Positions 38,572 through 64,000 are shown, numbered from the stretch's first letter. The stretch is DNA of 64,000 nucleotides from Rhodocyclaceae bacterium (GCA_016791105.1 JAEUNM010000099.1:36191-100190); one strand, 5' to 3'. Notes: generated from the sequence alone by a model not told the origin. Numbers and translations are program-made.

Positions 38572-38753
38572 GCCTGAAAAACCGCTCAAAACGGCACGCC
38601 CGAAGCCCGTTTCAGCCTCGGCTGCGGCAAATTGCCACACTTCTTGGCAACACTTGCCACAACCTGTAGCACATGCTACGGTTGCCCGGCTCACGAGAAG
38701 GGCGGGCATGCACTGCACCGTCACCATGGGTGCTCACTCTGGAGGAAAAGTCG

Positions 38754-40808: not shown

Positions 40809-40840
40809 GTCCGCGTGCCGCGGCAGTGGCCTGAACGGCA

Positions 40841-41764: not shown

Positions 41765-42113
41765 CAAGCACGCCGCCGAACCGAAACGGCTCCGAGCGCC
41801 AACTTCGGCACGCCCGCTCAATTCACATGCCCCCGCTCAATGCTCGCCGCAATTGCCGGCACAGCGCGTATGGACGCCATCACCGGGCCACACTCGCACG
41901 GCATGGCGGAAACGATAGTCGCGAACCAGGGCATACCGCGGCGCGATCCGAATAAAAGCCTGGCGCCACCAGCCGTGGCAATTTGCAATACCGGGCAGTC
42001 CGCAGCCCGCCCCGTCCAGTACAATCCCGGGTTGAAGGCGAGCATGCAAACAAACTGAAAATCGCCAGCCGCGCCCTGCTTTGCGATTCGATTTCGATAG
42101 TTGTGCCTCCCAC

Positions 42114-42896: not shown

Positions 42897-42903
42897 CGCG
42901 CCC

Positions 42904-45087
42904 ATGCCCGCCCTACACAAGTCCAAGCCAAGTAGGGTGCTGGTCGCGCTGTTGCTGTTGTTCAGTCTGGGTACACTGGTCACCACCGTCACCACCATGT
43001 GGCGGCTCAAATTCGAGGTGATCGCACACCAGCTCAACCAGGCGTCCGTACAGGCACAGGCCTTCGACGACGCACTGGTGCAGCCCCTCACGCTCATCGA
43101 TCTGAGCGGCCACGACATCGACGATGACCTCGACCGCGACAATCCCGAGCGGCTCGCCACAAAGCTCGCACAGGTTCTTCAGCACGCGCCCTTCGTGCGT
43201 TCTCTTTCACTCGCGACGCCGGACGGCCGCATATTCGCAAGTTCCAACGCGGCGAACATCGATCACATGCTCGACCTGCAGAGCCCGCAACCGGAAGCAT
43301 CGGCCGCAAGCGACGGATTGCGAATCGGCATGCCCTGGCAGGGCCGCGATTTCGCTGAGGGCCGCCCCACCAGTCCCGAACAGCCGGCCGCAGCGGACCA
43401 ATCCGGCTTCGTCCCGGTGCTGCGCAAGCTCCCCACCCGCCGCGCCCCCGTCATCCTGGCTGCCGCGCTCAATCCGGACTATTTCATCAACCTTTACGCG
43501 CGCCAGATATCACCTGTGCAGGGCCGTGTCGACGTCGTGCGACTTGACAACGTGCTGCTATTCAGCACGCGCGATGATTTTGCGCCGGGTAGCCGCTACG
43601 ACGCCACGCTGGTGGCCAGTGGCGAACACGCGCAGGAATCGGGCACTCGGACCGGCGACGGCAAGGATGGCGTTCCAGTTTTGACCGCCTATCGCGTATC
43701 GCGCAACTTTCCCCTCGTGACCGTGGTGCATATCAACCAGAATTTCGCGCTCGCCAAATGGCTGGCCGAAACGCGGACGGTTGCCAGCGTCGTGACGGTC
43801 GGTTTGACCTTACTGTCCGTGCTTGCCGCAATTTTGTTGCGACGCCTGCGCCGCAGCGAGCGCATCGAAGCCGATACCGAGGCGCAAACGCGGCTCGCCG
43901 CGCAGGTATTCGAGTCGGCCGGAGAAGGCATCCTGATCACCGACGCGCGCTCAGTCGTGCTGCGCATCAATTCCGCATTCGCCAACATGAGCGGATTCAG
44001 CACGCAGGACTTGGTCGGAAAAAAAACCAGCGTACTCAGTTCCGGCCGGCACGATGAAGCGTTTTACGCGGCGATGTGGAAATGCATCAAGGCGCAAGGT
44101 ATCTGGCGCGGCGAAATCGTCAACCGCCGCAAGGACGGCAAGCTGCAAACCGAGTGGCTCACCATTTCCGCCGTGCGCGACGAATTGGGCCGAGTCAGTC
44201 ACTATGTAGGCATTTACGCGGACATATCCGAACGCCGCCGCGTGGAAGAAGAACTGCGCGAACACCGCGACCATCTGCGCGAACTGGTCGATGCGCGCAC
44301 GGCGGAACTGCTCACTGCCAAAGATACCGCGGAAGCCGCCAATCGTGCCAAATCGGAATTCCTTTCCAATATGTCGCACGAGTTGCGCACGCCCATGCAT
44401 GCGATCCTTGCCTTTGCTCAACTGGGGTCGCACAAATCCAGCCTGGATACTTCGGGCGCTGGCAAATTGCGTACTTATTTCGCCAATATCGAACAGGCCG
44501 GCCGGCGTCTGATGGGGCTGCTGGACGATTTGCTGGACCTGTCGAAACTCGAAGCCGGGCGCATGCAGCTGGACATCAAATTTCACCCGCTGCGCCCCCT
44601 GGTGCAGGAAGTTTCTGCCGAACTGGCCATGCTCATAGACGAGCGCAAACAGACCTTGACGCTTACCGCCGAGGACGATGCCGCCGGCGCTTACTTCGAC
44701 CGCGCCCGCACCGCACAGGTATTGCGCAATCTGCTCGGCAATGCGTGCAAGTTCGCGCCCAAAGCCAGCAGCATCGAAATTCGCTATGGCCAGATCGAAG
44801 CCGGCATGGTGTACGTATCCATCAAGGACGTCGGCCCTGGTATTGCACCGGAAGATATCGAACGCATTTTCGAAAAGTTCGAACAGGGCACCGCGACCAA
44901 AGCATTTGGCAAAGGGTCCGGCCTGGGCCTGGCGATTTGCCGCGAAATCGTGCTTGGGCAAGGCGGCCAAATTTGGGCTGGCAACAACCCCGAAGGCGGG
45001 GCACACTTTACTTTCACCCTGCATGCGAATAACCCCTCCCAGGCGCAATTGAGCGCCACGAACGAAAGCCGCCAGCCCACCGCTTGA
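42904..45087 (+). CDS. Sensor histidine kinase with a large periplasmic domain, PAS, HisKA and HATPase (no receiver)
   Basis: Two TM segments flank about 270 periplasmic residues. PAS (GILITDARSVVLRINSAFANMSGF), H-box SHELRTPMHAI, G-boxes. Confidence 0.9.
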   Translation: MPALHKSKPSRVLVALLLLFSLGTLVTTVTTMWRLKFEVIAHQLNQASVQAQAFDDALVQPLTLIDLSGHDIDDDLDRDNPERLATKLAQVLQHAPFVRSLSLATPDGRIFASSNAANIDHMLDLQSPQPEASAASDGLRIGMPWQGRDFAEGRPTSPEQPAAADQSGFVPVLRKLPTRRAPVILAAALNPDYFINLYARQISPVQGRVDVVRLDNVLLFSTRDDFAPGSRYDATLVASGEHAQESGTRTGDGKDGVPVLTAYRVSRNFPLVTVVHINQNFALAKWLAETRTVASVVTVGLTLLSVLAAILLRRLRRSERIEADTEAQTRLAAQVFESAGEGILITDARSVVLRINSAFANMSGFSTQDLVGKKTSVLSSGRHDEAFYAAMWKCIKAQGIWRGEIVNRRKDGKLQTEWLTISAVRDELGRVSHYVGIYADISERRRVEEELREHRDHLRELVDARTAELLTAKDTAEAANRAKSEFLSNMSHELRTPMHAILAFAQLGSHKSSLDTSGAGKLRTYFANIEQAGRRLMGLLDDLLDLSKLEAGRMQLDIKFHPLRPLVQEVSAELAMLIDERKQTLTLTAEDDAAGAYFDRARTAQVLRNLLGNACKFAPKASSIEIRYGQIEAGMVYVSIKDVGPGIAPEDIERIFEKFEQGTATKAFGKGSGLGLAICREIVLGQGGQIWAGNNPEGGAHFTFTLHANNPSQAQLSATNESRQPTA

Positions 45088-45149
45088 ATCCGGTTAGAAT
45101 TGCGCGTCCGTCACTGGAACGACGCAATTAATCATAAGAGCACACAGCG

Positions 45150-47246
45150 ATGCCTTACCGTATCAAAGCCCCTGGAATTCAACTAATGGCACCGCTTGCG
45201 CTGGCCTTATCATGCACCCACGGACTATCCGCCCGGGCCGCCGAAACCCTGCCCGCCGTAGTCGTGACCGGTACGCGCATCGAACAATCCAGTTTCGATC
45301 TGCCCATGGCCATCGATACCGTGTCGGCCGACAGCCTGCACGCGCAGAAACTCGAAACCAATATTTCCGAATCGCTGGCGCGAGTACCCGGCGTCGCCGT
45401 CGGCAGCCGTGAAACTTACGCCCAGGAACAGCAACTCACACTGCGGGGTTTCGGTTCGCGCTCACAATTCGGCGTGCGCGGCATACGCCTGCTGGCGGAC
45501 GGCATTCCCGCCAGTACGCCGGACGGCCAGGGCGGCAGCGGATTATTCGACCTGTCTTCGGCCGCGCGCATCGAAGTGCTGCGCGGGCCATTTTCAGCGC
45601 TATATGGCAATCATTCCGGCGGCGTGGTCCAGGTATTTACCGAAGACGGCCCGGCACAGCCGACGCTGAGCGGGTCCGTCATGGCGGGTTCATGGGGCAC
45701 GCTGCGCGAAGCGCTCAAGTTCGGCGGCACGGCAGGTTCCGTCAATTACATCGGCAGCTTGTCGAATGTCGAAACCGATGGCTACCGCGACCACTCGGCT
45801 GCCACCAAACAGCAGGCCAACGTAAAAATGCGCGTTGCGCTGACGGATTCGACCAGCATTACCCTGGTCGGCAACTATCTGAACCAGCCGACCAATCAGG
45901 ATCCCTTGGGACTGACCGCCGATCAGGTGCGCCAAAACCGCCGCCAGGCGATCGCCACGACCGGCACTTTCGATACGCGCCGTTCGTTACGCAACGAACA
46001 GGGCGGCGCGGTGCTGGATACCAGACTATCGGCACAGGACAGCATACGCGCAACCGTATATCTGGGCACTCGCAGCAACCAACAGTTTTTGCCTATAGGT
46101 GGCTTGGGCACCGGTGTCAGCGCATTCGATCGCGACTATTGGGGGGCCGGACTGCGCTGGACGCATCGTCAAGGCGCGCTCACTACCAGCCTGGGCGCGG
46201 AATACGATCGTGCGGTGGAAGACCGGCGCGGCTTTCGCAATAACAGCGGCGTACAGGGTTTGCTCACCCGCGACGAAACCAATACTGTCGATCAGAGCGG
46301 CATCTATGCCCAGGCGGAATGGGCGTTCGCTCCAGCGTGGAGCCTGTCCGGCGGACTGCGCTACACGCGTTTGAGGGTCGATTCGCGCGACCACTTCATC
46401 GTCCCCGGTAGCAACCCGGACGACTCCGGCAGCACCAGTTTCTCGGCCTGGACGCCGGCCGCCGGCCTGCTGTGGAAGCTCGACCCGGCCGTGAACCTTT
46501 ACGCAAACGTCGGGCGCAGCTTTGAAACGCCGACACTGATCGAACTGGCCTATCGCCCGGATGGCACGAACGGGCTCAATCTCGGACTGCAGCCATCAAC
46601 CAGCACACATTTTGAAATTGGCGCAAAAACCATCCTGGCGTCGGACATTCAGCTCACGGCTGCCTTATTCGAAATCCGCACGCACAAAGAAATCGTGGTG
46701 TTCAGCAACGCGAACGGGCGCACCACCTACCAGAATGCCGGCGACACGCGCCGGCGCGGCCTCGAAGTGGCACTGGACGCGCCCCTGCCGGGCGGCTTCG
46801 CGGCCTATTTGTCGGGCACCTGGCTTGAAGCCAAATTTCGCGATGCCTACCTTACCTGCGCCAGCGTGGGTTGTACCGTTCCTACCGTAACTGTCAATGC
46901 CGGCAACCGCATTCCCGGCGTACCAAACTTCACGGTATACGGAGAACTGAACTGGAAGCACGCCGCGAGCGGATTTTCCGCAGGCGTCGAGGCGCGCTGG
47001 GTCGGGCCGGTCAATGTCGATGACCGCAATAGCGCAACCGCCGGCCAATACACCGTAGCCAACCTGCGCGCCGGCTTCGAACAGCGCGGCAGCGCCTGGA
47101 CGCTGGCGGAATTTATCCGCATCGACAACCTGTTCGACAAGGAATACATCGGCGCGGTGTATGTGAATGATGCCAGCTCGCGCTTTTACGCGCCCGCACC
47201 GGAACGCACGTTTCTGCTCGGCCTGAGCGCCCAATATCGCTTCTGA
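45150..47246 (+). CDS. TonB-dependent outer-membrane receptor
   Basis: Signal peptide, TonB box-like LPAVVVTGTR, plug and 22-strand barrel length, terminal aromatic ...YRF. Confidence 0.93.
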   Translation: MPYRIKAPGIQLMAPLALALSCTHGLSARAAETLPAVVVTGTRIEQSSFDLPMAIDTVSADSLHAQKLETNISESLARVPGVAVGSRETYAQEQQLTLRGFGSRSQFGVRGIRLLADGIPASTPDGQGGSGLFDLSSAARIEVLRGPFSALYGNHSGGVVQVFTEDGPAQPTLSGSVMAGSWGTLREALKFGGTAGSVNYIGSLSNVETDGYRDHSAATKQQANVKMRVALTDSTSITLVGNYLNQPTNQDPLGLTADQVRQNRRQAIATTGTFDTRRSLRNEQGGAVLDTRLSAQDSIRATVYLGTRSNQQFLPIGGLGTGVSAFDRDYWGAGLRWTHRQGALTTSLGAEYDRAVEDRRGFRNNSGVQGLLTRDETNTVDQSGIYAQAEWAFAPAWSLSGGLRYTRLRVDSRDHFIVPGSNPDDSGSTSFSAWTPAAGLLWKLDPAVNLYANVGRSFETPTLIELAYRPDGTNGLNLGLQPSTSTHFEIGAKTILASDIQLTAALFEIRTHKEIVVFSNANGRTTYQNAGDTRRRGLEVALDAPLPGGFAAYLSGTWLEAKFRDAYLTCASVGCTVPTVTVNAGNRIPGVPNFTVYGELNWKHAASGFSAGVEARWVGPVNVDDRNSATAGQYTVANLRAGFEQRGSAWTLAEFIRIDNLFDKEYIGAVYVNDASSRFYAPAPERTFLLGLSAQYRF

Positions 47247-52199: not shown

Positions 52200-52269
52200 A
52201 CCATACCCCCCGAATCTCGCCAGAATTGGCGACATCGCCCGAGTTGGCATGAAGCAACCATAAACTTCT

Positions 52270-52297
52270 TTGCACGGTCGATTTTTGCGCATATCAT
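52270..52297 (+). promoter_or_regulatory. Candidate sigma-70 promoter of the pilus-like operon
   Basis: TTGCAC-N16-TATCAT, located 28 nt upstream of the secretin GTG start. Confidence 0.4.
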
Positions 52298-52324: not shown

Positions 52325-54205
52325 GTGCGCGCAACTCCACAACCCACGGTACCTAACGCACACGGCTCAGCGATTTCAATTGCTGCGCTCTTGCTCGTTT
52401 TGCTGGCCGGTTGTGCCGGCACCACGCTGCGACCGGGTACCGACAACCATATTTCACGCGATAGGGCACAAGCACGGCCCATTGCATCGATTCCGCCACC
52501 TGTACGCCACAGTTACCACCTGCCACCGCCACTTCCGGCGCCAGAAGTGGAAACTTATAGCGTGGTCGTCAATCGCGTTCCAGTACATGAATTATTGTTT
52601 TCCATCGCACGCGACGCGCGTCTCAACGTAGACATACACCCAGGCATACGCGGCACCGTCACGCTCAATGCGCTCGACCAAAGCTTGCCGCAATTGCTCA
52701 CGCGCATCGCGCGTCAGGCCGACGTGCGCTTCGAACTGGAGGCGGACGTGCTCACCGTCATGCCGGACAGTCCGCTGCTGCGCCACTACCGCATCGATTA
52801 CGTAAACATGACGCGCGACACGACCGGCACGCTATCGGTGACTACCCAGGTGGCAAATACGGGCGCATCCATGGGCACGGCGGCGGCGGGCAATAATTCG
52901 ATTACCCGCATCGAAAACCGCGTGCAGAGCCGCTTCTGGGAAACCCTGGTGCAGAACGTAAAAGACATCCTGCACGAAACCGACAAGATACTGCCCGAAG
53001 GTTCGAGCGAAACCACGGTAGAAAAAAACGATACGCAAAGTACCACCGGTACCGGGGCTGCCCCTGCGCCGACAGCACCGGCACCGGCCACCCGCAGTCG
53101 CAGCCGCAGTGCCGGCGGCGCGCCAGCGGCCGCGGCCGCTACGCTCGCCACCAGCCCCAACCCGGCCAGCCTGCAGAACCAGGCGACGACCGTGGTGCGC
53201 ACCACCACTTACCGGGAGGCGGCCTCAGTCATCGCGCACCCCGAATCGGGCGTGCTATCCGTGCGCGCCACCGCGCGCCAGCACGAAAAGATCGCCGAAT
53301 TCATAGACCGCGTCATGGATGCGGCCGGGCGCCAAGTGCTGATCGAAGCCACGGTGCTGGAAGTTCAACTTGCCAACAACTACCAGCAGGGCATAGATTG
53401 GTCCAGGCTGCGCCTGGATGGCACCGGTTTCCGCCTCAGCCAGCGCGCCGTGGGGAGCATTTCGGCACCGCCCGCCAGCCTGTTCGAACTGGGTTATACC
53501 AACGCCGATTCGCGCGTCGGCAATCTGAGCGCGACGGTGCGGCTGCTCGAATCTTTCGGCAACGTAAAAGTATTGTCCAGCCCCAAACTTTCGGTCATGA
53601 ACAACCAGACCGCGGTACTGAAGGTGGTGGATAACGCGGTTTATTTCACGATACAGAGCAACACCAACCAGAACCAAGCGACCACCACCACCACGTTCAC
53701 AACCAATCTTTATTCCGTCCCGGTCGGTTTCGTCATGACCGTCACGCCGCAGGTGAGCGACAGCCGCGCCGTGGTGCTGAACCTGCGCCCCAGCGTATCG
53801 CGCATCATCGGTACGGTGGCCGACCCCAACCCGGAATTGAAACGTGCTGGCGTCACCAGCGAAATTCCCGTCATACGCACGCGCGAAATGGATTCCGTGC
53901 TGCGCGTCGAAGACGGCAATATCGCCGTCATGGGCGGTTTGATGGAAGACGTGCTGGACCAGCGCGACGACACGGTACCGCTGCTGTCGCGCCTGCCCCT
54001 GGTGGGCGGGGTGTTCGCCAACCGCAACGACACCGTGCGCAAAACCGAACTGGTGGTGTTTCTGCGGCCTACCGTGATTCGCCACGCATCGCTGCAGGGC
54101 GACTACGGTCATCTAACCGAAAAAGTGCCCGGCCAGGATTTTTTCCTCCACGACCCCGCGCCGGCACGCCCGCTCGGACTGGAAAGCGAACATGCGCGGC
54201 ACTGA
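52325..54205 (+). CDS. Secretin lipoprotein (MshL/GspD/PilQ family)
   Basis: Lipobox LLAGC, N-domains and C-terminal secretin domain (VKVLSSPKLSVMNNQTAVLKVVDN...IPVIRTREMDS). GTG start. Confidence 0.9.
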   Translation: MRATPQPTVPNAHGSAISIAALLLVLLAGCAGTTLRPGTDNHISRDRAQARPIASIPPPVRHSYHLPPPLPAPEVETYSVVVNRVPVHELLFSIARDARLNVDIHPGIRGTVTLNALDQSLPQLLTRIARQADVRFELEADVLTVMPDSPLLRHYRIDYVNMTRDTTGTLSVTTQVANTGASMGTAAAGNNSITRIENRVQSRFWETLVQNVKDILHETDKILPEGSSETTVEKNDTQSTTGTGAAPAPTAPAPATRSRSRSAGGAPAAAAATLATSPNPASLQNQATTVVRTTTYREAASVIAHPESGVLSVRATARQHEKIAEFIDRVMDAAGRQVLIEATVLEVQLANNYQQGIDWSRLRLDGTGFRLSQRAVGSISAPPASLFELGYTNADSRVGNLSATVRLLESFGNVKVLSSPKLSVMNNQTAVLKVVDNAVYFTIQSNTNQNQATTTTTFTTNLYSVPVGFVMTVTPQVSDSRAVVLNLRPSVSRIIGTVADPNPELKRAGVTSEIPVIRTREMDSVLRVEDGNIAVMGGLMEDVLDQRDDTVPLLSRLPLVGGVFANRNDTVRKTELVVFLRPTVIRHASLQGDYGHLTEKVPGQDFFLHDPAPARPLGLESEHARH

Positions 54206-54950
54206 CGCTATTCGCTGCGCGGGTACCCTGGCGTGTTGGCTCGCGGCCTGCTTGGCCGGCGCCACGGCCAGTGCCCAGGCGGCCGGAGCCGGCGCTGCGT
54301 CCCCACCTGATGCGGCCGAACCGCCTGCGGCGGACGCCGGCCCGCGCCTGCGCAAGGAGCGCCGCCTGCTGCCGGCCGACCCCGATCTGTTGCGCGCCTG
54401 GCGTGCCTATGGCGAGGGCGAGCACGCGGCCGCCCGCTCGGCCTACCTGGCGGCGCTGGCACATGACGCGGGCAATGTGCAAGCCTGGAACGGCCTTGCG
54501 CTGCTCGCGCTACAGGGCGGAAACCACGCCGCCGCGCTGGAATGCTATCGCCGCGCCGCCGCTGCCGATCCCAAAAACCCCGCGGCGCTGGCCGGGTTGG
54601 CGCTGCTCGAAGCACGGCCGGCGGCCGATGCGGCACTCCGCCTCAAACAACTATTGGCGGAACAGCCGCGCGCCGCCGCCCTGCACTTCGCACTGGGCAA
54701 TATTTACGCCGACCAAGCCCAATGGGGCGAGGCAGAGCGCGCCTATTTTGCGGCGCTCGATCTGGAAGGCGACAACCCGGACTATCTGTTCAACCTCGCC
54801 GTCAGTCTCGATCACCTGCGCCAGCCACACGCCGCACTGCGGCACTATCGCGCCGCGCTGGTGGCGGCAGGCGGCAAACCGACCGCCTTTGCGCCGGCTG
54901 ACGCCGAACGCCGCATCGCAGAACTATCGGCCTTGGTAGATAGGCCATGA
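54192..54950 (+). CDS. TPR-repeat protein (MshN-like position)
   Basis: Signal peptide, then several TPR-like repeats (AWNGLALLALQGGNHAAALECYRRAAAADPKN...). Start overlaps the secretin stop. Confidence 0.75.
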   Translation: MRGTDAIRCAGTLACWLAACLAGATASAQAAGAGAASPPDAAEPPAADAGPRLRKERRLLPADPDLLRAWRAYGEGEHAAARSAYLAALAHDAGNVQAWNGLALLALQGGNHAAALECYRRAAAADPKNPAALAGLALLEARPAADAALRLKQLLAEQPRAAALHFALGNIYADQAQWGEAERAYFAALDLEGDNPDYLFNLAVSLDHLRQPHAALRHYRAALVAAGGKPTAFAPADAERRIAELSALVDRP

Positions 54951-56671
54951 AACCCGCCGCCTTGCCGCTGGGCCAGCAATTGATCGCGCGCGGGCTGGTG
55001 AGCGAAGACCAGTTGCGCATCGCCCTGATGGAGCAGGATCGCAGCAAACTGCCGCTCGGCAAACTGCTGGTGAGGCTGGGGTTCGTATCCGAAGCGGCGC
55101 TGCGCGATGCGCTGGGTGAAGTTCAGGGCCACCGCACCGTCGATCTTGCCCACACCCTGGCCGACCACGAAGCATTGGCCTTGGTGCCGCAGGACTTGGC
55201 GCGCCGGCACCGCCTGCTGGCACTGTCCTGGCAGCCGGAGGCGCGCCGCATCACGGTTGCCATGGCCGACAGCAACGATTTGCTCGCCATGGACCAATTG
55301 CGCGCCCGGCTGCCGGCTGGCACACAGGTGGAGGCGCTGATTGCCGGCGAATCCGACATCGCCCGCGCCATCGATCGCTACTATGGCTTCGATCTGTCGC
55401 TGGACGGCATCCTCACCGAAATCGAAACCGGCCGCGCCGATCCACGCCTGGCGGCTGCCGCAGCCACTGAATACAGCCAGCCCGTGGTGCGCCTGGTGGA
55501 TGCCCTGCTGTCCGATGCAGTCAAGCGCGGCGCGTCCGACCTGCATTTCGAACCGGAAGAAAGTTTTTTGCGCATACGCCTGCGCATAGACGGCATCCTG
55601 CATCAGGTGCGCGCGCTGCATCAATCTTACTGGCCGGCCATGGCGGTGCGCGTGAAGGTAATGGCGGGCCTCAACATCGCCGAGACGCGCGCACCCCAGG
55701 ACGGCCGCATCACGCTCAACACTAACGGCAGACTGATCGATTACCGCGTATCGGTACAGCCCACGCTGCACGGCGAAAATATCGTGCTGCGCATACTGGA
55801 CCGCGAGCGCGGCATTCTGAAGCTGGATGGCCTGGGCCTGGCGGATGCCCAGCTCGACACGCTCAAACTGATGCTGGCACGCCCGTCCGGCATCATCCTG
55901 GTGACCGGCCCCACCGGCAGCGGCAAAACCACCACGCTTTATTCGGTCTTATCCGCCATCAGTTCCGAATCCATCAACGTGATGACGCTGGAAGATCCGG
56001 TCGAATACCCGCTGCCGCTGATCCGCCAGACCTCCGTGGCCGACGCGGTCAAGCTCGATTTCGCCAACGGCATACGCTCCATCATGCGGCAGGATCCGGA
56101 CGTCATCCTGGTCGGCGAAATACGCGACGCGGATACCGCGCAAATGGCTTTCCGCGCAGCCATGACGGGCCATCAGGTGTTTTCCACCCTGCACACCAAT
56201 TCGGCGCTGGGTGCCATTCCACGCCTGCTGGACCTCGGCATATTGCCCGACATCCTGGCCGGCAACGTGGTCGGCGTGATTGGCCAGCGCCTGCTGCGCC
56301 GCCTGTGCGTCGAGTGCCGCCAGCCGCACGCCCCGGACGCGGCCGAGTTGCAACTATTGGGCTGGCGCGAAGACCGTCCGGCACCGGCCTTATTTCGCGC
56401 CAAAGGCTGCACGCATTGCGCGCATCAGGGCTATCGCGGGCGCCTCGCCATCATGGAAATCATGCGGCTGGACGCCGATATCGACGACCTCATCGCGCGC
56501 CGCGCGCTGCCGCGCGAATTGCGTGCCGCGGCACGCGCCAAAGGGTTCCGCAGCCTGGCCGACGACGGTCTGCGGCGCGTGCTGGACGGCTCCACCTCGC
56601 TGGCGGAATTGAGCCGCGTGGTGGACCTCACCGATCGCATGCCGGCAGCCAGTGCCGACTGGGCCGCCTGA
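54947..56671 (+). CDS. GspE/PilB/MshE-family secretion ATPase with MshEN-type N-terminal domain
   Basis: Walker A GPTGSGKTTT, Asp and His boxes, tetracysteine CVEC...CTHC. N-terminal tandem LGxxLIxxGLV motifs. ATGA overlap with the upstream gene. Confidence 0.95.
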   Translation: MKPAALPLGQQLIARGLVSEDQLRIALMEQDRSKLPLGKLLVRLGFVSEAALRDALGEVQGHRTVDLAHTLADHEALALVPQDLARRHRLLALSWQPEARRITVAMADSNDLLAMDQLRARLPAGTQVEALIAGESDIARAIDRYYGFDLSLDGILTEIETGRADPRLAAAAATEYSQPVVRLVDALLSDAVKRGASDLHFEPEESFLRIRLRIDGILHQVRALHQSYWPAMAVRVKVMAGLNIAETRAPQDGRITLNTNGRLIDYRVSVQPTLHGENIVLRILDRERGILKLDGLGLADAQLDTLKLMLARPSGIILVTGPTGSGKTTTLYSVLSAISSESINVMTLEDPVEYPLPLIRQTSVADAVKLDFANGIRSIMRQDPDVILVGEIRDADTAQMAFRAAMTGHQVFSTLHTNSALGAIPRLLDLGILPDILAGNVVGVIGQRLLRRLCVECRQPHAPDAAELQLLGWREDRPAPALFRAKGCTHCAHQGYRGRLAIMEIMRLDADIDDLIARRALPRELRAAARAKGFRSLADDGLRRVLDGSTSLAELSRVVDLTDRMPAASADWAA

Positions 56672-57887
56672 GTCCGCCGCCGTGGCCTTGCATCGCTACA
56701 AAGCCGTCAATGCCGAGGGGCGCGTGGTGCATGGCCAGATCGAGGCGGCCAATGTCGTGGACCTCGAATTGCGTCTGTCCCACATGGGGCTGGATTTCGT
56801 ATCCGGCGCGCCGGCACGCCGTGCATTGCAATTGCGCCGCCGCCGCGGCGTGCCGCGGCGCGAATTGATCGCATTCTGTTTCCACCTCGAACAGTTGCAG
56901 AAAGTCGGCATAGGCATGCTGGAAGCGCTGGCCGATCTGCGCGAGTCCACCGAACACGAGGGCATGCGCAGTGTGATCGGTGCGGTGCATGAAAGCATAC
57001 AGGGCGGGCGCACCCTGTCGCAGGCGCTGGACGAACACCCGCGTGTATTCAGTCGCGTGTTTTGCGCACTGGTGCGCGCGGGCGAAACCAGCGGCACGCT
57101 GCCGCAGGTGTTGCGCGAACTCACCGACGCACTCAAATGGGAGGACGAACTTGCCGCGCACACGCGCTCGCTGGTCGCTTATCCCGCCTTCGCGGGCGTG
57201 GTGCTATTGGGCGTGGCGGGCGTGCTCATATTTGTCGTGGTGCCCGAATTGGCGCACTTTCTGCGTGCCATGGGGGGCGATCTGCCCTGGCAGACGCGCG
57301 CCCTGATCGGCATCGCCGATATCCTGCGCGCGCTGTGGCCGCTGCTGGTGCTGCTGCCCGTCGTCGCCACGCTTGGTTTGCGCATCGCCTATGAGTACAG
57401 CGGCGCCGTGCGTTATCGCAGCGACCGGCTCAAACTCCAATTGCCTTTAGTCGGCCCGGTGCTGCATAAAATCATCCTGGCCCGGCTCACATCGGTGTTC
57501 GCCATGATGTACGCCGCCGGCATTGCGGTGACCGAAATCGTGCGCCAGTCCGAAGAGGCGGCCGGCAATGCCGTGATGCGCGACGCGCTGCGCCGTGCCG
57601 GCACGCTCATCAACGAAGGCCAGAACCTCAGCCTGGCATTCCAGGCGGCCGGCCTGTTTCCGCCGCTGGTACAGCGCATGCTCAAAGTGGGCGAAGCCAC
57701 CGGCGCGCTGGATAACGCGCTGGCCAACGCAGCCTATTTCTATCACCGCGACGTGCGCGAATCCATCACGCGCGCGCAGGCGGTGATCGAACCTTTACTG
57801 ACCGTACTGCTGGGCCTGTTGCTGCTCACGGTGGCCATGTCGGTGCTGGGGCCGGTGTTCGACATGCTGGGCAAATTGCGCATCTGA
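56652..57887 (+). CDS. GspF/PilC/MshG-family inner-membrane platform protein
   Basis: Duplicated T2SSF domain and three TM segments. Start is the GTG at 56652 or the GTG at 56682 (VALHRYKAVNAEGR). Confidence 0.92.
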   Translation: MPTGPPESAAVALHRYKAVNAEGRVVHGQIEAANVVDLELRLSHMGLDFVSGAPARRALQLRRRRGVPRRELIAFCFHLEQLQKVGIGMLEALADLRESTEHEGMRSVIGAVHESIQGGRTLSQALDEHPRVFSRVFCALVRAGETSGTLPQVLRELTDALKWEDELAAHTRSLVAYPAFAGVVLLGVAGVLIFVVVPELAHFLRAMGGDLPWQTRALIGIADILRALWPLLVLLPVVATLGLRIAYEYSGAVRYRSDRLKLQLPLVGPVLHKIILARLTSVFAMMYAAGIAVTEIVRQSEEAAGNAVMRDALRRAGTLINEGQNLSLAFQAAGLFPPLVQRMLKVGEATGALDNALANAAYFYHRDVRESITRAQAVIEPLLTVLLGLLLLTVAMSVLGPVFDMLGKLRI

Positions 57888-57891
57888 TGCC

Positions 57892-59394
57892 ATGGCAGAC
57901 CGGCGCCTGCTCTATCTGTTCGACCACGGCCTTGTTGCCTATCGACGCGCGGACGGAGGCCTGCTGGCGGATGCGGAATTTGCCGGCGATGAAGCAGGTC
58001 AGGCGCAATTTTCGGCCTACGTGGCGGGGCAGCGCAGCGCGGTATTCAGTGTCCTGGCCGATGTGGGCGAAGAAGCCTATCACTACGAAAAAGTGCCCTT
58101 TGTGCGCGGTGCCGACCGCAAGGCCTTATTTGCGCGCAAACTGGCGCAATTCGTGTATGGCTCGCCCTATAGCCTCGTCATATCGCATGGGCGCGAAAAA
58201 ACCGGCCGCCGCGACGAGCGCGTGGTATTCACGGGACTGGCGCGGCCCGGCCAATTCGAACATTGGCTCACGGCCATCGTGCAAAACGAAGCACCGCTGG
58301 CCGAATTACACAGTCTGGCACTGGTCAGCACGGCCTTGCTCAAACGCTTGAAGCGCAAGGACGAGCGCCTGCTGCTCATCAGCCGCACCCGCGCCGGACT
58401 GCGCCAAAGTTATTTCGAACAAGGCGTGCTGCGCCTCTCGCGCCTGACGCCCGCCGCCTTGCTGGCCGGCCTGCCGGATGCCGACGCGGCGCTGCAGGAA
58501 GCGCGCCGCCTGCACCATTACCTGGCCGGACAGCGCGCGTTCGCGCGCGACAGCGTGCTGCCGGTTCTATTCCTGCTCAGCGGCCCCGACGTGACAGACT
58601 TGCAAGGCGCGCTCGCGGACGAACCAAATCTAAGTGCCGTGCCGCTGGATCTGGCGCAGGCAGCCAGCGCCTGCGGTGTGCAGCCCGTGCCGCAGGATGG
58701 ACTAAGCGAAACCCTGTTTCTGCACTTGATGCAGACACACCCGCCGGCGCGTCAGTTGGCGGCGCCGGCATTGCGGCGCTTCGATGCACTGCGCCGCGCG
58801 CGCCGCAACCTGCCGCTGGCTGCCGCAGCCGCCTGTGCCTGCGCTTGCACCGCCGCCGCGGGGCTGCTCTGGCAAAGCAGCCAATTGAACGACCAAAGCG
58901 CCATATTGCGCGGCCAGGCGCAAACCGTTGCGGCACAGATCAGGTCCATCGAAGCTTCACTACCGCAACCACCCTATGCGCCGGAAACGTTGGCCCGAGC
59001 CGTGGCCGGGTTGCAAACGCTGGAGCGCGGCAACTTTGCCCCGCGCGTGTTGCTACTACCCCTGTCGCGCAGCCTGGATCGCTTTCCGGACATCGACTTG
59101 CACAGTATGGAGTGGTCGCTGCAACCGCCGCGCCCGGCCTCACCGGCCGCCCCTGCGCAGAGCGCGCTGGCCAGCCTGAGCGTGCAGGCCGAACTTGCAT
59201 CCGGCAGCGCGCAGGATATGCGCGAGGGCCTCGACCGCGTGGCGGCATTCGTGGACGATTTGCGCACCCAGCGCGTGGAAGTCGTGGTGCTGCGCCAGCC
59301 TTTCGACCTCGATGCCGGCTTTGCGCTGCGCGCCGCGGCGGACACCCAGGCGCCGGCGCGCTTTGCCCTGCGTCTGACGACAGACCATCCATGA
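57892..59394 (+). CDS. Hypothetical 500-aa assembly protein (PilM/PilN-fusion or MshI-like by architecture)
   Basis: Cytoplasmic N-domain, one central TM (LPLAAAAACACACTAAAGLLW), periplasmic C-domain. Assignment rests on position and topology only. Confidence 0.55.
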   Translation: MADRRLLYLFDHGLVAYRRADGGLLADAEFAGDEAGQAQFSAYVAGQRSAVFSVLADVGEEAYHYEKVPFVRGADRKALFARKLAQFVYGSPYSLVISHGREKTGRRDERVVFTGLARPGQFEHWLTAIVQNEAPLAELHSLALVSTALLKRLKRKDERLLLISRTRAGLRQSYFEQGVLRLSRLTPAALLAGLPDADAALQEARRLHHYLAGQRAFARDSVLPVLFLLSGPDVTDLQGALADEPNLSAVPLDLAQAASACGVQPVPQDGLSETLFLHLMQTHPPARQLAAPALRRFDALRRARRNLPLAAAAACACACTAAAGLLWQSSQLNDQSAILRGQAQTVAAQIRSIEASLPQPPYAPETLARAVAGLQTLERGNFAPRVLLLPLSRSLDRFPDIDLHSMEWSLQPPRPASPAAPAQSALASLSVQAELASGSAQDMREGLDRVAAFVDDLRTQRVEVVVLRQPFDLDAGFALRAAADTQAPARFALRLTTDHP

Positions 59395-59969
59395 AACTTG
59401 CCGTCGAATGGCGCCACCTGCGCGCGAGCTTGCTGTCCGCCGCGGCTTTGCTACTGGCCGGCGCTGCGGCGCTGGGCTACGCCTGGCACACCAGAACAGC
59501 CGCCCGCGCGCAATTGCAGCAGGCGCAAAACGCCCTCGTCGCGGCGCGCCAGTCGCTCACGCGCACAGAGGACGAAGCGCAACTGCTCAAGCAGCGCATC
59601 ACGCAATTTCAGGCGCTTGAAGCGCGCCATCTGGTCGGACCGGAACGGCGCGTGGAGTGGGTGGAATTGTTGCGCACCGTGGCCGCCGCCCGCCACCTCG
59701 ATGAGCTGCAATTCGAACTGGGCCCGCCCCGCCCCATCGATGCGGAGTGGGTAAATCCGGACGCCGGCCAGTTGCAGGTCACCGTGAGCAGCATGCGGCT
59801 CGATTTCCCGCTCGACCACGAAATGCTCATGTTCGACCTGCTGCAGGAACTTGCCGCGCGCGCGCCGGCGCTGCTGCGCACGAAAAGTTGTCAGTTGCGC
59901 CGCGATGCCGACGGCCTGCGCGGCGACTGCCGCGTCGACTGGATAAGCTGGCAGGAACGCCATGGCTAA
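59391..59969 (+). CDS. Hypothetical bitopic coiled-coil protein (PilO/MshJ-like)
   Basis: 192 aa with N-terminal TM, then a coiled-coil (AQLQQAQNALVAARQSLTRTEDEAQLLKQRI). ATGA overlap with the upstream stop. Corresponds to the 3-prime part of ORF 58263..59969. Confidence 0.5.
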   Translation: MKLAVEWRHLRASLLSAAALLLAGAAALGYAWHTRTAARAQLQQAQNALVAARQSLTRTEDEAQLLKQRITQFQALEARHLVGPERRVEWVELLRTVAAARHLDELQFELGPPRPIDAEWVNPDAGQLQVTVSSMRLDFPLDHEMLMFDLLQELAARAPALLRTKSCQLRRDADGLRGDCRVDWISWQERHG

Positions 59970-60336
59970 GCGCCACCACCACGCCGCCGCCGCGGCGGTG
60001 CTTTTCCTGCTGTGTGCAAACGCCGGCGGCGAAGAAATCGGCCGCCTGTTCTACACGCCGGCCGAGCGTGCGGAGCGCGACGAATTGCGCCTGCATCCAC
60101 GCCCGCAGCCGGAGGCGGAATCACCGCCGCCGGTAATCAATGGCGTGGTACGCCGCGCTGCCGCGCAGGACACGGTCTGGCTGGACGGTGTTCCACTGGA
60201 CCGCGCCGCGGCACATTTGCGCGGCATCGTGCTCGGGCGGAACCACGACCAGGTGTTGCTACGGCGCGGCGCCAGGCTCATCGAACTGCCGGTGGGCAGC
60301 GCGCCTGCCGCGCCGCTTGCCAAATCCGATGACTAA
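59962..60336 (+). CDS. Small secreted hypothetical protein (MshK-like position)
   Basis: 124 aa with a signal peptide (AAAAVLFLLCANAGG). 8-nt overlaps on both sides. Confidence 0.4.
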   Translation: MAKRHHHAAAAAVLFLLCANAGGEEIGRLFYTPAERAERDELRLHPRPQPEAESPPPVINGVVRRAAAQDTVWLDGVPLDRAAAHLRGIVLGRNHDQVLLRRGARLIELPVGSAPAAPLAKSDD

Positions 60337-61480
60337 GTTGCCGCCTAAGCCGCCTCCGCAGCGCCAGCGCGGCGCCGCCTTGTTGCTGGCGTTCGCTTTG
60401 GTATTCACGCTGGGCTTGGTGATGTTCGTGTCCAGGCTGCCGCGCCGCACGCCAGATATTGCGACCAGCGCGAAACTGCTCGCCGTCGCGCGCGAAGCCC
60501 TGGTGGCACGCGCGGCGGCAGAGGACAACAGCCCCGGCAGTTTGCCCTGCCCGGATATCGACGGCGACGGCGATGCAGATTTCCAGGCCGGCGGCGCCAA
60601 TCCTTGCCGCGGCGCGCTCGGCACGGTGGCCTACGTCGGTCATTTGCCCTGGAAAACGCTGGGCATACCGCCGCCGCGCGACCCGGCCGGCAATTGCGTC
60701 TGGTACATCCTGGCCGCCCCCTTCCGCAACACCATACGCACCAGCTGGCGCGGCGGCGCAAGCTACCCGGCGCTCAACCCGGCCACGCCGGCCCCGCTGC
60801 GGCTACACCTGGCCGATGGCGTCGAAGTGGAAGCCGTGGCCCTGCTCGCCGCGCCGGGGCCGCCCCAGCCGGGCCAGGCACGCGGCGGAAATGGCTGTGA
60901 TGGTACGGACCCAGCCGCTTACCTGGATAGCGACGCGGCGAGCGGGGCGTCCAATGCCAACGGCGCGCCGGACGGGCTGACCTTCTGGCAATCCGGCACT
61001 CGGCCGGGCATAAACGACGAAATGTTGGCCATCACCCGCGCCGACCTGTTCCGCATCGTAAACCGTCGGGTCCTCAATGAAATCGCCGGCAATGCCGCCG
61101 CCGGCTTTGGCCTCGCCGGCTATTACCGCAGCCACGGCTACTATCCCTATGCCGCGGCGGCGTCTAACGGCAACCCCTCGCCGCTGCAACTGGGCCCTTC
61201 GGCCCTGCCCTACAACGTGCTGGCCTGGCGCCCGCATGGGGCGCAGGAGGCGGTCGAGCCCGCGCTCTGGCTCAGCCGCAACGGCTGGCTGGACCTCGCG
61301 CGCTACCAGCTCGCGAGCGGCTACGCACCGGGCAGCGCCTATCCGCAAGATTGTTCCACCTGCATCGCCAGCGGCACCGGTAGCGCCCAGGCGCTGCTGC
61401 AACTGCCGCTCGACTCGGCTGTGTCGACGCTGGCCCTGTGCGTCCCCAACCCTGCACTGGCGAGTTGCGGCAGACCATGA
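60329..61480 (+). CDS. Hypothetical GspK/PilX-like minor filament component with DxDxDG loop
   Basis: N-terminus QRQRGAALLLAFALVFTLGLVMF resembles GspK/PilX-type anchors. Contains LPCPDIDGDGDADF. Corresponds to the 3-prime part of ORF 60140..61480. Confidence 0.5.
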   Translation: MTKLPPKPPPQRQRGAALLLAFALVFTLGLVMFVSRLPRRTPDIATSAKLLAVAREALVARAAAEDNSPGSLPCPDIDGDGDADFQAGGANPCRGALGTVAYVGHLPWKTLGIPPPRDPAGNCVWYILAAPFRNTIRTSWRGGASYPALNPATPAPLRLHLADGVEVEAVALLAAPGPPQPGQARGGNGCDGTDPAAYLDSDAASGASNANGAPDGLTFWQSGTRPGINDEMLAITRADLFRIVNRRVLNEIAGNAAAGFGLAGYYRSHGYYPYAAAASNGNPSPLQLGPSALPYNVLAWRPHGAQEAVEPALWLSRNGWLDLARYQLASGYAPGSAYPQDCSTCIASGTGSAQALLQLPLDSAVSTLALCVPNPALASCGRP

Positions 61481-62208
61481 AGCGCATGCCTCACAGTGCC
61501 CGGCGCAGTTGCGGCTTCACGCTGGTGGAAGCCGCCATCGTTCTGGTGCTGGTCGGCCTGTTGATCGGCGGACTGGCCATTCCCCTGTCCGCGCGCCTCG
61601 AACAACGGCAATACGAACAGACGCGGCAAACCCTGGCCGACATACGCGAAGCTCTGCTCGGTTTCGCCGCGGCGCGCGGCTACCTGCCCTGCCCGGCAAA
61701 AAGCGCCAGCGACGCTGAAGAAGACCGCGCGCCGGGCGGCGCCTGCAACCGCCAGTCCGGCCTGCTGCCCTGGCGCACGCTGGGTACCGCAGACGCCGAC
61801 GACTGGGGCCGGCAGTTCCATTACCGCGTGTCGGCGGCGTTTTCCGATGCGGCCAACCGTCCCACGCTATTCACGCACGCCGACCTGCACGTACGCGCGC
61901 GCGACGGCGCCGGCGCGGCGCAGGAACTGGCGAGCCCGGACGGCCTGCCGCCCGTGGTGGTGCTGTCGCACGGTCCGAACGGCCACTGGGCGACCGGCAA
62001 GAATGGCGTGGCACAAGCCGAAGGCCCGGCCACCAGCGTGGACGAGCGGCAGAACGCCAATCCCGGCAGTGACGACCGCATCGTGTACGCGCGCCCACCC
62101 TCGCGCAATGACGACGCCGCCCGCGGCGGCGCATTCGACGACGAAGTGCTGTGGATTTCGCCTTACGTGCTGTTGGCGCGTCTCATTCAGGGCGGACGCC
62201 TGCCATGA
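61477..62208 (+). CDS. Prepilin-type minor pilin (243 aa)
   Basis: Leader MKRMPHSARRSCG followed by FTLVEAAIVLVLVGLLIGG (class III signal, Glu+5). ATGA overlap with the upstream stop. Confidence 0.8.
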   Translation: MKRMPHSARRSCGFTLVEAAIVLVLVGLLIGGLAIPLSARLEQRQYEQTRQTLADIREALLGFAAARGYLPCPAKSASDAEEDRAPGGACNRQSGLLPWRTLGTADADDWGRQFHYRVSAAFSDAANRPTLFTHADLHVRARDGAGAAQELASPDGLPPVVVLSHGPNGHWATGKNGVAQAEGPATSVDERQNANPGSDDRIVYARPPSRNDDAARGGAFDDEVLWISPYVLLARLIQGGRLP

Positions 62209-62323
62209 GCCGGCCCGCCCGCCCACCGCCCTGACGCAGCAGGACACCTTCGCCCGTCCGCACACGCGGCCCAACGCCATGCGCCCGAATGACTGTCTCC
62301 GAATTCCCTCAGGAGTACCCAAA

Positions 62324-63013
62324 ATGAATCGACAAAAAGGTTTCACCCTGGTTGAAATTGCCATCGTGCTGGTTGTGATCGGCCTCTTGATTGCCGGCGT
62401 ATTGAAAGGCCAGGAGCTTATCCATAGCGCCAAAGCCAAGAACATGGCTACGGAACTGAAAAGCATTGCCGCAATGGTTTATTCCTATCAGGACAAGTAC
62501 AAGGCACTGCCCGGCGACCAGAACCAGACCATGTTGAACGATGCCTTCGGTGCGCCCGGTGGTACCCCCGTCGCCACCGCGTGTAGCGGCACGAGCGGCT
62601 GCACGCCGGGCAACGGACGCATAGACGGCGACTGGAATGCCACCGCGAATAGTGAAACTTACGTGTTGTGGCAACACCTGCGGCTGGCCGGCATAGCCAC
62701 CGGCAACAGCACCCAGGGTGCAGCAAACTACCCGGCGCGCAATGCCGATAGCGGCTTGCTCGGAATAGAAGGCGGCATCAGTGCGACCGGCACGGCGGCG
62801 CCGTTCATCGCCGGCATGAACGGCCGCTTTTTCGTGTGTTCCGATGCCGTGCTGGGCCGTTATGTGCGCCAGATCGATCTGACCCTGGATGACGGCGACA
62901 GCGCCAACGGCAGCGTGCGCGCCGTGCCCAGCGGTAGCGCGCGCGGCAGCGCCGCGACTGCCACTGCCAACCTGGAGGACGGGCAGCCTTACACGGTCTG
63001 TGCGGCGTTTTGA
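62324..63013 (+). CDS. Prepilin-type major pilin candidate (229 aa)
   Basis: MNRQKG|FTLVEIAIVLVVIGLLIAG, preceded by AGGAG. Four Cys, including a C-terminal pair (FVCS...TVCAAF). Own 115-nt upstream spacer. Confidence 0.88.
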   Translation: MNRQKGFTLVEIAIVLVVIGLLIAGVLKGQELIHSAKAKNMATELKSIAAMVYSYQDKYKALPGDQNQTMLNDAFGAPGGTPVATACSGTSGCTPGNGRIDGDWNATANSETYVLWQHLRLAGIATGNSTQGAANYPARNADSGLLGIEGGISATGTAAPFIAGMNGRFFVCSDAVLGRYVRQIDLTLDDGDSANGSVRAVPSGSARGSAATATANLEDGQPYTVCAAF

Positions 63014-63016
63014 GTT

Positions 63017-63049
63017 GCGTTACAGGGCCGCGCTGCGGCCCTGTAACGC
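63017..63049 (+). terminator. Perfect 15-bp hairpin immediately after the major pilin stop
   Basis: GCGTTACAGGGCCGC-gct-GCGGCCCTGTAACGC. No T-tract follows, so it is either a terminator or an RNA-stability element. Confidence 0.55.
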
Positions 63050-63291
63050 ATCGTGAAGTCCAGTCCGCAATGGCGCCCGGCGCTAAGGTTTAGCCCTTCT
63101 CCCCTTCGGCGCAGACGTCGGCACGCATTTGCTTCAAGTGCGGGTCCGAACTTCCGAGCAGAGTCGCAGGAACCATCACTTCCCCGCACCCATGCCCCAC
63201 TGGCCCGGCAGGGAGCGAATCTTGTTCAGACTCGCGCACGAGCCTTCCGCAGGTTCGCGTATCATGCTCGCCGCGCTCCCTTTCCGCCGTC

Positions 63292-63639
63292 ATGCGACGC
63301 CAAACCCGCCAACTTGTATTAATCGTTTTCTGCGCCCTGAGCTTGATCTTGGCGCAGAACGCGGGGTTTGCGCATTGGCTGCAGCACGCTGGGCAAACCG
63401 TCGGGCCTGCAGGTGTGGCCGGCCCGCCTGGGTCGTCCGGCGAGCACCGCGACGGGCTGCCCGGCGCGTGCCCGCAGTGCGTCGCCATTGCCGGTTTTGC
63501 GGCCGCCCCACCGCCGCAGATTGTCGCGCTGCCGGTTCCACACGGTGACGCCCTGCGCAGCGCAGCGCCGGCCTTCACTTTCATTCCTGCATCGTCGGCG
63601 CCGCCCTACGCGGCGCGCGCACCGCCCGTCCGTCTCTGA
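63292..63639 (+). CDS. DUF2946-like small secreted or membrane protein
   Basis: 115 aa. N-terminal hydrophobic helix, His pair (AHWLQH) and CPQC motif. Family call is tentative. Confidence 0.45.
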   Translation: MRRQTRQLVLIVFCALSLILAQNAGFAHWLQHAGQTVGPAGVAGPPGSSGEHRDGLPGACPQCVAIAGFAAAPPPQIVALPVPHGDALRSAAPAFTFIPASSAPPYAARAPPVRL

Positions 63640-63702: not shown

Positions 63703-64000
63703 TTGAAAACCATCAGCCACATCATGCCGGCGCTTGCACTCGCGCTGCCGGCAGCCGCCTGCGCCGCGGATGACGCCGAACTGCGCGCCCTGCGCGAAGA
63801 AATGGCGCGCATACGGGCAAGTTTCGAACAGCGCATCGACATGCTGGAACGCAAGCTCGCCCAGGCCGAAGCGCAGGCGGGCAGCGCGGGTACCCCCGAC
63901 GCTCCGCCGCAAGCCAGCACCGCCGTGCCAAACCCGTCGGCCACCAGCAACGCCTTCAATCCGGACGTATCACTGATCTTGTCGGCCAGCTACGGCGCGA
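63703..64000 (+). CDS. Outer-membrane protein with N-terminal coiled-coil (partial, runs off the window)
   Basis: Frame 1 is open to the window end. TTG at 63703 follows GGAGAG (or ATG at 63724). Signal peptide ...ALALALPAAACA, coiled-coil ELRALREEMARIRASFEQRIDMLERKLAQAE, then NAFNPDVSLILSASYG. Confidence 0.45.
   Translation, partial: MKTISHIMPALALALPAAACAADDAELRALREEMARIRASFEQRIDMLERKLAQAEAQAGSAGTPDAPPQASTAVPNPSATSNAFNPDVSLILSASYGA

Follow-up and report, generated by a model that had tools for sequence, protein, structure and literature searches.

A compact type IV pilus operon, probably of the MSHA-related lineage, in a Rhodocyclaceae bacterium

Mannose-sensitive haemagglutinin (MSHA) pili of Vibrio cholerae, Aeromonas and Shewanella are encoded by mshHIJKLMNEGF together with mshBACDOPQ, and they can retract by means of a PilT encoded elsewhere. 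According to Denise et al. 2019 (PMC6668835), the mandatory genes of MSH systems are mshA, E, G, L and M, and each system occupies a single locus, all of these loci lacking a prepilin peptidase. Among Betaproteobacteria, the MSH-like clusters of Sideroxydans ES-1 and Gallionella ES-2 have been described as much rearranged relative to those of Vibrio and Pseudoalteromonas, in a passing remark printed without data (Emerson et al. 2013, PMC3770913). Here, we analysed 64,000 nucleotides of DNA from a Rhodocyclaceae bacterium (GCA_016791105.1 JAEUNM010000099.1:36191-100190; the whole stretch is hereafter called the window), in which an earlier note, made from the sequence alone, had described a ten-gene type IV filament operon with non-canonical gene order at positions 52325-63013. 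Profile and synteny comparisons indicate that this operon is a reduced copy of a rearranged MSHA-like machine common in Rhodocyclales, a system on which we found no paper for that order. We consider it probable that its genes specify a compact but working apparatus for assembling type IV pili, one that belongs to the MSHA-related lineage and whose product would most likely be an adhesive surface pilus.

The operon is real and intact: ten uninterrupted open reading frames (ORFs) were found on the plus strand at the places previously described, with matching domain profiles (Table 1). We refer to the four genes between the platform gene and the prepilin genes as g5 to g8 and to the two prepilin genes as g9 and g10. 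The GC content at third codon positions (GC3) was 0.73-0.82 in each of the ten genes. The window was compared with a relative, locus L004, whose proteins are 70-92% identical to those of the window; all ten frames were intact in both, synonymous divergence (dS) was 0.5-0.9, and the ratio of nonsynonymous to synonymous divergence (dN/dS) was 0.09-0.46 across all ten genes, being lowest in the ATPase gene and g10 (0.086). Because every gene fell within this range, the reduced operon is evidently maintained by purifying selection. Furthermore, the uniform GC3, the dN/dS values and a gene order common to about 80 loci together led us to reject a chance arrangement. The junctions, in gene order, measured -14, -4, -20, +4, -4, -8, -8, -4 and +115 nt. 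The exact ATGA overlaps at 54947, 59391 and 61477 and the 115-nt spacer before the major pilin gene were thus as reported, but the account of nine genes joined throughout by overlaps needed correction, in that the platform and g5 genes are separated by a 4-nt gap. Likewise, of the overlaps given as 8-20 nt, both 8-nt overlaps stood, but those of 14 and 20 nt hinge on the choice of start codon; the platform start is uncertain, and the gene call of L004 places it 3' of the ATPase stop.

A genome scan with a six-sequence g5 alignment yielded 153 species-level matches, the best 80 of which were taken as loci. These best 80 are nearly all from Rhodocyclales and include Methyloversatilis universalis FAM5 and EHg5, Sulfuritalea, Propionivibrio and Accumulibacter, as well as a carrier with a complete genome, Ca. 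Desulfobacillus denitrificans (locus L037). On contigs of sufficient length, tblastn recovered the order secretin, tetratricopeptide repeat (TPR) protein, ATPase, platform, g5, g6, g7, g8, pilin in about 80 loci. An exhaustive HMMER search for the g5 family returned 3,067 cluster representatives (50% identity) at E <= 1e-3 and 1,474 at E <= 1e-30, so that the family is common rather than rare in public data, where it lacks annotation; when proteins were searched through a word index with the g5 profile, no further relatives emerged. The window g5 is also 100% identical to KF778_19725, and g8 to JNM98_14075, hypothetical proteins of two different Rhodocyclaceae metagenome-assembled genomes with contigs of about 104 kb, which implies that at least two assemblies exist of the same population.

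The relatives are richer in genes than the window. An MshM homologue, 43-45% identical to Aeromonas MshM and matching AAA_22 (E about 1e-70), lies directly 5' of the secretin gene in 53 of the 57 relatives with enough upstream DNA, and 52 of these 53 loci carry a gene for an NtrC-type sigma54 response regulator 5' of MshM. A membrane-bound class III adenylate/guanylate cyclase is encoded directly after g9 in 51 of 63 relatives, and an opposite-strand histidine kinase between the cyclase and the major pilin in 32 of 55. The window and L004 lack MshM, the sigma54 regulator, the histidine kinase, the cyclase, the long form of g8 and the long form of the TPR protein; MshM is also absent from loci L001, L022 and L047. 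A tblastn search of the whole 64-kb window with reference proteins detected no homologue of an A24 prepilin peptidase, PilT or MshM, in agreement with the earlier note, and no A24 peptidase was found in the fetched flanks of the relatives. Nevertheless, neither absence sets the system apart in the way that had been proposed: since 53 of 57 relatives carry MshM, its lack marks a reduced variant rather than a new subfamily, and a missing peptidase is normal for MSH systems (PMC6668835).

The locus of Ca. Desulfobacillus denitrificans illustrates the fuller form (Table 1). Its major pilin gene has a sigma54-type promoter, TGGCATCCATATTGCT, 54 nt upstream, and the combination of regulator, kinase and promoter resembles the PilS/PilR control of pilA. 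It is unusual for a cyclase to sit inside a type IV filament operon; at this place the window has the 115-nt spacer instead; the embedded cyclase suggests that the pilus is linked to cAMP or cGMP signalling. A 565-aa plus-strand ORF of L037 lying between the cyclase and pilin genes, considered as a conserved unknown protein, was rejected in view of its odd composition, the real gene being the opposite-strand histidine kinase. Between g6 and g7, a pair of small ORFs that overlap each other (82 and 50 aa; L037:12316-12682) looks like an inserted cassette of the toxin-antitoxin type.

Table 1. Positions of the operon genes, of nearby signals and of additional genes in the Ca. Desulfobacillus denitrificans locus (L037). 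Positions without a prefix refer to the window; TM, transmembrane segment.
Feature	Length	Position	Strand	Evidence or remark
Outer-membrane secretin, lipoprotein	626 aa	52325..54205	+	PF00263 E 3.5e-39
Exported TPR protein	252 aa	54192..54950	+	TPR_1/2/16/17, E about 1e-13
Assembly ATPase	574 aa	54947..56671	+	T2SSE E 3.8e-123; MshEN PF05157 E 1.8e-16
Inner-membrane platform, GspF/PilC/MshG family	411 aa	56652..57887	+	T2SSF, two stretches, E 1.5e-44
g5, putative bitopic PilM-PilN-type fusion (MshI/GspL-like)	500 aa	57892..59394	+	Predicted fold
g6, bitopic	192 aa	59391..59969	+	TM segment 10-32
g7, secreted periplasmic	124 aa	59962..60336	+	Signal peptide
g8, pilin-like without Glu5	383 aa	60329..61480	+	Leader ...QRQRG↓AALLL
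g9, prepilin	243 aa	61477..62208	+	Cleavage site SCG↓FTLVE; N_methyl E 2.2e-5
g10, prepilin	229 aa	62324..63013	+	Cleavage site QKG↓FTLVE; N_methyl E 4.3e-8; TIGR02532
Sigma70-like promoter match		52269..52297	+	TTTGCA-17-TATCAT; 28 nt 5' of secretin start
Spacer	115 nt	62209..62323	+	Strong Shine-Dalgarno AGGAG 8 nt 5' of g10 start
Perfect 16-bp GC-rich hairpin		63016..63050	+	Directly 3' of g10 stop
NtrC-type sigma54 response regulator		L037:905-2365	+	
MshM-like ATPase	484 aa	L037:2387-3841	+	TM segment and C-terminal extension
Class III cyclase		L037:17622-18995		PF00211 E 1.6e-56; about six predicted TM
Histidine kinase		L037:19015-20829	-	Divergent from major pilin gene
Sigma54-type promoter		L037:20824-20839		TGGCATCCATATTGCT

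Judged by its profile scores, the first product is an MshL-type secretin. It passed the TIGR02519 MshL model as a borderline case (254.0 bits; cut-off 250.2) and stayed well short of the rival models GspD (161; cut-off 351) and PilQ (109; cut-off 284), while six secretins of the Rhodocyclales clade, most of them over the cut-off, scored 247-268 bits on TIGR02519 and Aeromonas MshL scored 279. A lipobox, LLAG↓C, at residues 27-30 accompanies the secretin domain, confirming the lipoprotein secretin that had been noticed before. The TPR protein that follows bears a signal peptide, with LAAC as a possible lipobox, occupies the MshN position directly after the secretin and matches Aeromonas MshN weakly (27% identity, E 0.029); it is shorter than its L037 homologue (252 versus 419 aa) and is probably a secretin assembly factor. 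MshN itself has been linked to TadD (PMC6668835).

The profile matches of the third and fourth products uphold their description as a GspE-type ATPase and a GspF-type platform. In the ATPase, the Walker A motif (GPTGSGKT), the Asp box, the His box and the CxxC...CxxC tetracysteine are intact. Its first 150 residues matched the sequence of the V. cholerae MshEN structure 5HTL (E 1.4e-15), and the cyclic di-GMP (c-di-GMP) motif model NF053729 gave 57.7 bits (cut-off 38). The relaxed tandem 24-residue MshEN motif of Wang et al. 2016 (PMC5013675) is present in the N-terminus except for the last residue of the second motif, a position taken by Ser, Asn or Thr in most clade members; accordingly graded, c-di-GMP binding by the window ATPase is plausible but not assured. 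The MshEN domain occurs in PilB and PilF as well, and its presence is therefore necessary for MshE but not specific. On NCBIfam models, the window ATPase scored 523 bits for GspE (cut-off 630) and 507 for PilB (cut-off 676), the same pattern as a true MshE (PilB 526, GspE 524); its identity was 38% to MshE, 39-41% to GspE, XcpR and T2SS-like ATPases and 33-37% to PilB and HofB. The highest sampled identity of the platform was to Aeromonas MshG (29.9%), about equal to that with GspF, and it scored 274 bits on the GspF model (cut-off 424).

Profile searches assigned g5 to g8 to no Pfam or NCBIfam family. For g5, previously noted as a 500-aa bitopic protein, a confident AlphaFold model (predicted local distance difference test score 85.6) shows a cytoplasmic actin-like domain, a TM segment at 307-327, a long coiled helix and a periplasmic C-terminal alpha/beta domain. 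In Foldseek, the N-terminal domain matched PilM (5eou, E 1.9e-12) and cyto-EpsL (1yf5, E 1.2e-7), and the modelled fold identifies g5 as a PilM-PilN-type fusion. Its profile aligned weakly with an MshI-like ORF of Aeromonas (hhalign E 3e-4) and showed no similarity to a GspL-like protein of Comamonas; the one-protein architecture of GspL is present in g5, though it is not unique to type II secretion systems (T2SS). In g6, encoded downstream, the TM segment leads into a helical stretch, and the C-terminal domain that follows holds a Cys pair conserved in a 40-sequence alignment. The earlier note had called it PilO-like, and the N-terminal TM segment followed by a helix agrees with this, but a Pfam scan of 40 family members returned noise only, and hhalign of the family against MshJ and GspM, each represented by a thin two-sequence alignment, was negative; by position and topology, g6 may be PilO/GspM/MshJ-like. 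The small g7 protein, whose signal peptide agrees with the earlier call of a secreted protein, sits where PilP or MshK would sit and bears a highly conserved motif, LGRLF(F/Y)TPxxRA (LGRLFFTPERRA), in 51 loci; a scan of 38 family members likewise returned no Pfam family, noise only.

At the pilin end, the two prepilins with G↓FTLVE sites that had been recognised earlier, g9 and g10, both matched N_methyl. We assign g9 as a minor pilin, and g10 is probably the major pilin: with 229 aa and two Cys pairs, one of them C-terminal (FVC...TVC), it resembles a pilin and not a pseudopilin, and it scored 27 bits on the GspG model (cut-off 89). The 383-aa g8 had been proposed to be GspK/PilX-like, a candidate that we rejected, as its AlphaFold model (score 72.5) had no fold match in the PDB (best E 7.4). 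Instead, g8 aligns as a paralogue with g9 along roughly its first 130 residues (blastp E 2e-6), has conserved motifs and reads as a pilin-like protein of a new family, probably a tip or priming subunit. The window carries a short form; in many relatives g8 reaches about 1200 aa, as in L037 (L037:13278-16880), with a C-terminal repeated motif, 'VRVAT..NIDL......IDG..L..GDRVLVK.Q....NGIY.W', that has no Pfam match. These repeats may form an adhesin domain at the tip, belonging to a family not yet described. The pilin set consists of the two prepilins and g8 only, and similarity to Aeromonas Msh pilins is confined to the N-terminal leader and helix.

Set beside MSHA, the operon shares an MshL-type lipoprotein secretin, then a TPR protein placed like MshN, then an ATPase with an MshEN domain and a platform, in the order L-N-E-G, and confinement to one locus with neither a peptidase nor a retraction ATPase inside, the single-locus trait of MSH systems. 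Most relatives add an MshM homologue adjoining the secretin gene, giving the order M-L-N-E-G-g5-g6-g7 with its MSHA-like run M-L-N-E-G, and g5 contributes a predicted PilM-type fold with its weak MshI-like profile match. The MshL cut-off, the MshEN domain and the MshM of the relatives thus support the earlier view that MSHA is the closest named layout, and the order in the window, L-N-E-G and then g5-g6-g7, does differ from mshIJKLMNEG as stated. Unlike in MSHA, whose alignment genes precede the secretin gene, g5, g6 and g7 follow the platform gene; MshM of the relatives lies before the secretin, whereas that of MSHA lies after it; the window lacks MshH, MshF and the B/A/C/D/O/P/Q pilin set; the identity of the core proteins to their Aeromonas counterparts is only 30-39%; and the relatives add the cyclase and a PilS/PilR-like sigma54 regulator pair.

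The core proteins were placed in neighbour-joining trees (200 bipartition bootstraps) with two gammaproteobacterial MSH references of order I-J-K-L-M-N-E-G, Aeromonas caviae (L085) and Legionella adelaidensis (L086), and with T2SS loci, non-canonical T2SS-like loci from Skermanella and Comamonas plasmids, and several PilB loci as further references. In the ATPase tree, the Rhodocyclales sequences formed a clade (100%), as did the MshE pair (100%), with no deeper grouping supported; the platform likewise formed its own clade without a supported deeper placement, and a secretin tree of three groups was uninformative on sisterhood. Nesting of the core proteins within the sampled MshE, MshG or MshL, which the earlier note had set as the test of its proposal, was not observed. 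One further tree reference, a type IV pilus-like cluster on the Ca. Manganitrophus plasmid CP114559.1 (L088), was used for the trees only; it encodes two adjacent GspE-family ATPases, PilT, a 553-aa 'PilM', a 1613-aa hypothetical protein and prepilins of 398 and 501 aa.

Several findings weigh against an MSHA-related assignment. MshM, a mandatory gene under the TXSScan MSH model, is missing from the window; the ATPase, platform and secretin fall into clades of their own (99-100% and 98% bootstrap) whose grouping with the Aeromonas and Legionella MSHA proteins is unsupported; and the identity of the ATPase to GspE and XcpR is not below that to MshE. Moreover, both of its MshEN motifs start with Pro and not Arg, the second ends in Val in the window copy, and g6, g7 and g8 showed no detectable homology to MshJ, MshK, MshQ or MSHA minor pilins, no direct comparison of g7 with MshK having been made. 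A type IVa pilus offers another point of reference, since the ATPase's N-terminal domain matches PilB and PilF, g5 has a PilM-like fold within a PilM/N/O/P-like gene series, and the sigma54-type promoter, histidine kinase and NtrC-type regulator of the relatives recall pilA and PilS/PilR. The operon departs from this type in occupying a single locus with PilM and PilN fused, in scoring far under the cut-offs of the PilB, PilQ and PilC models, and in having no PilT, PilU or PilD nearby and no FimU-PilVWXE-PilY1 set. Collectively, the comparisons argue that the Rhodocyclales systems are a variant branch of MSHA-related pilus machinery, not a new kind of machine, and that this uncharacterised branch is marked as distinct by its relocated alignment module, by g6, g7 and g8, by its small pilin set, by its separate core clades and, in the relatives, by the cyclase and the regulator pair. 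The subfamily suggested by the earlier note is partly supported, by the separate clades and the different gene order, but not by the lack of MshM, the window copy being a reduced one; and rearranged MSH-homologous clusters of Betaproteobacteria, possibly of the same layout, had already been pointed out in the passing remark cited above (PMC3770913).

We weighed this reading against other explanations. Secretion is the first function to consider, as the operon has in common with the T2SS (GspC-M) a secretin, a tetracysteine GspE-family ATPase and a GspF-family platform; a T2SS-like machine, in which g10 would build a short periplasmic pseudopilus that drives folded proteins out via the secretin, without any long pilus arising on the surface, is nonetheless unlikely in our estimation. 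The fused bitopic g5 followed by the small bitopic g6 does recall GspL-GspM, with the GspL-like arrangement of actin-like domain, TM segment and periplasmic domain; g8 lacks Glu5, as does GspK; among NCBIfam models, GspE scores highest for the ATPase, GspF for the platform and GspG for the pilins; and the best plasmid-borne relatives of the ATPase reside in T2SS-like loci (Skermanella, 42.8% identity). Yet the GspD, GspE, GspF and GspG models all remain far under their cut-offs (161/351, 523/630, 274/424 and 27/89), the secretin fits MshL best (254 versus 161 bits for GspD), and no GspC, GspN or GspH-I-J set is present. In addition, g10 is large and Cys-bearing compared with the ~140-aa GspG, the g8 model matches no GspK fold, the g5 profile is unlike that of the Comamonas GspL-like protein, and the relatives possess MshM, a TPR protein similar to MshN and a g8 of 1200 aa whose repeats look like those of an adhesin. 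These repeats are also more suggestive of surface binding than of DNA uptake. A competence pilus, or another retractile type IV pilus that is not an adhesin, would likewise be a filament served by a secretin and an assembly ATPase, and core genes alone do not reveal function, but ComEA, ComEC, DprA and PilT are missing from the window and the HofQ and ComGA models stay far under their cut-offs, leaving this explanation highly improbable.

The losses in the window raise the further question of whether the operon is a decaying remnant that no longer builds a working machine. Together with L004 it has dispensed with MshM, the sigma54 regulator, the histidine kinase and the cyclase, its TPR protein and g8 are shortened (252 versus 419 aa and 383 versus 1200 aa), and no sigma54-type promoter precedes the window pilin gene. 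Decay is, however, difficult to reconcile with ten intact frames in two lineages at the observed dS, with dN/dS values that are lowest in the ATPase and the major pilin, with intact catalytic motifs in the ATPase and with gene overlaps kept tight, and MshM is absent from three more loci; we regard a remnant as quite unlikely. A different proposal concerns the whole group: the relocated g5-g6-g7, the giant g8 tip proteins and the operon cyclase of most members might define a separate filament lineage beside MSH, with the window copy as a minimal member, which we hold to be possible but doubtful. If it were true, the cyclase would couple assembly or surface contact to cAMP or cGMP, besides c-di-GMP.

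Under the preferred reading of a functional MSHA-related machine, g8, g9 and g10 would be inserted into the inner membrane and cleaved at G↓FTLVE by a prepilin peptidase encoded elsewhere in the genome. The hexameric ATPase would dock on the platform and on the cytoplasmic actin-like domain of g5, and g5, g6 and the periplasmic g7 would form an alignment complex reaching from the inner membrane to the outer-membrane channel, a putative MshL-type secretin whose assembly the TPR protein probably aids. With g8 and g9 priming the filament and sitting at its tip, g10 would be polymerised as the shaft, and the MshEN domain of the ATPase would probably make assembly responsive to c-di-GMP. The outcome would be an adhesive pilus serving attachment, flocs or biofilm.

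Signals around the operon were also inspected. The sigma70-like match upstream of the secretin gene is a weak, position-based guess, given that the region contains two such sites where chance alone would yield 2.2. The spacer before g10 was searched for a sigma54-type promoter and none was found, and its sequence is not conserved with L004. The hairpin after g10 (-36.7 kcal/mol, z -5.9, with 0 of 200 shuffles folding equally well) probably marks the operon end or stabilises the transcript; as it lacks a U tract, it is not a canonical intrinsic terminator. Beyond it lie a small DUF2946 protein (63292-63639; E 5e-4, under the Pfam cut-off) and, at 63734-64000, the first part of a protein with a signal peptide that is cut short by the window end; neither appears related to the pilus. 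The upstream flank is housekeeping in nature (rsmI, an amidohydrolase, DUF3025 and a HIRAN protein), and 5-13 kb upstream, at 38673-47246, lie genes for a GAF-domain sigma54 activator, a metallo-beta-lactamase-fold protein, a solute-binding protein, a Cache/PAS histidine kinase and a TonB-dependent receptor, for which no link to the pilus operon was found.

Current ideas on how these machines work are not overturned by the findings. They add to the known type IV filaments an MSH-like branch that has many members, a rearranged layout and three accessory families missed by current profile libraries. The window copy shows that the adhesin extension can be lost along with MshM, the cyclase and the regulators, while the rest remains under purifying selection. 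Cultured carriers such as Methyloversatilis universalis make the system testable. Rhodocyclales, including Accumulibacter, Propionivibrio, Sulfuritalea and Methyloversatilis, dominate activated sludge and many groundwater communities; the formation of flocs and granules there needs cell attachment, for which this pilus, probably c-di-GMP-responsive, is a plausible factor.

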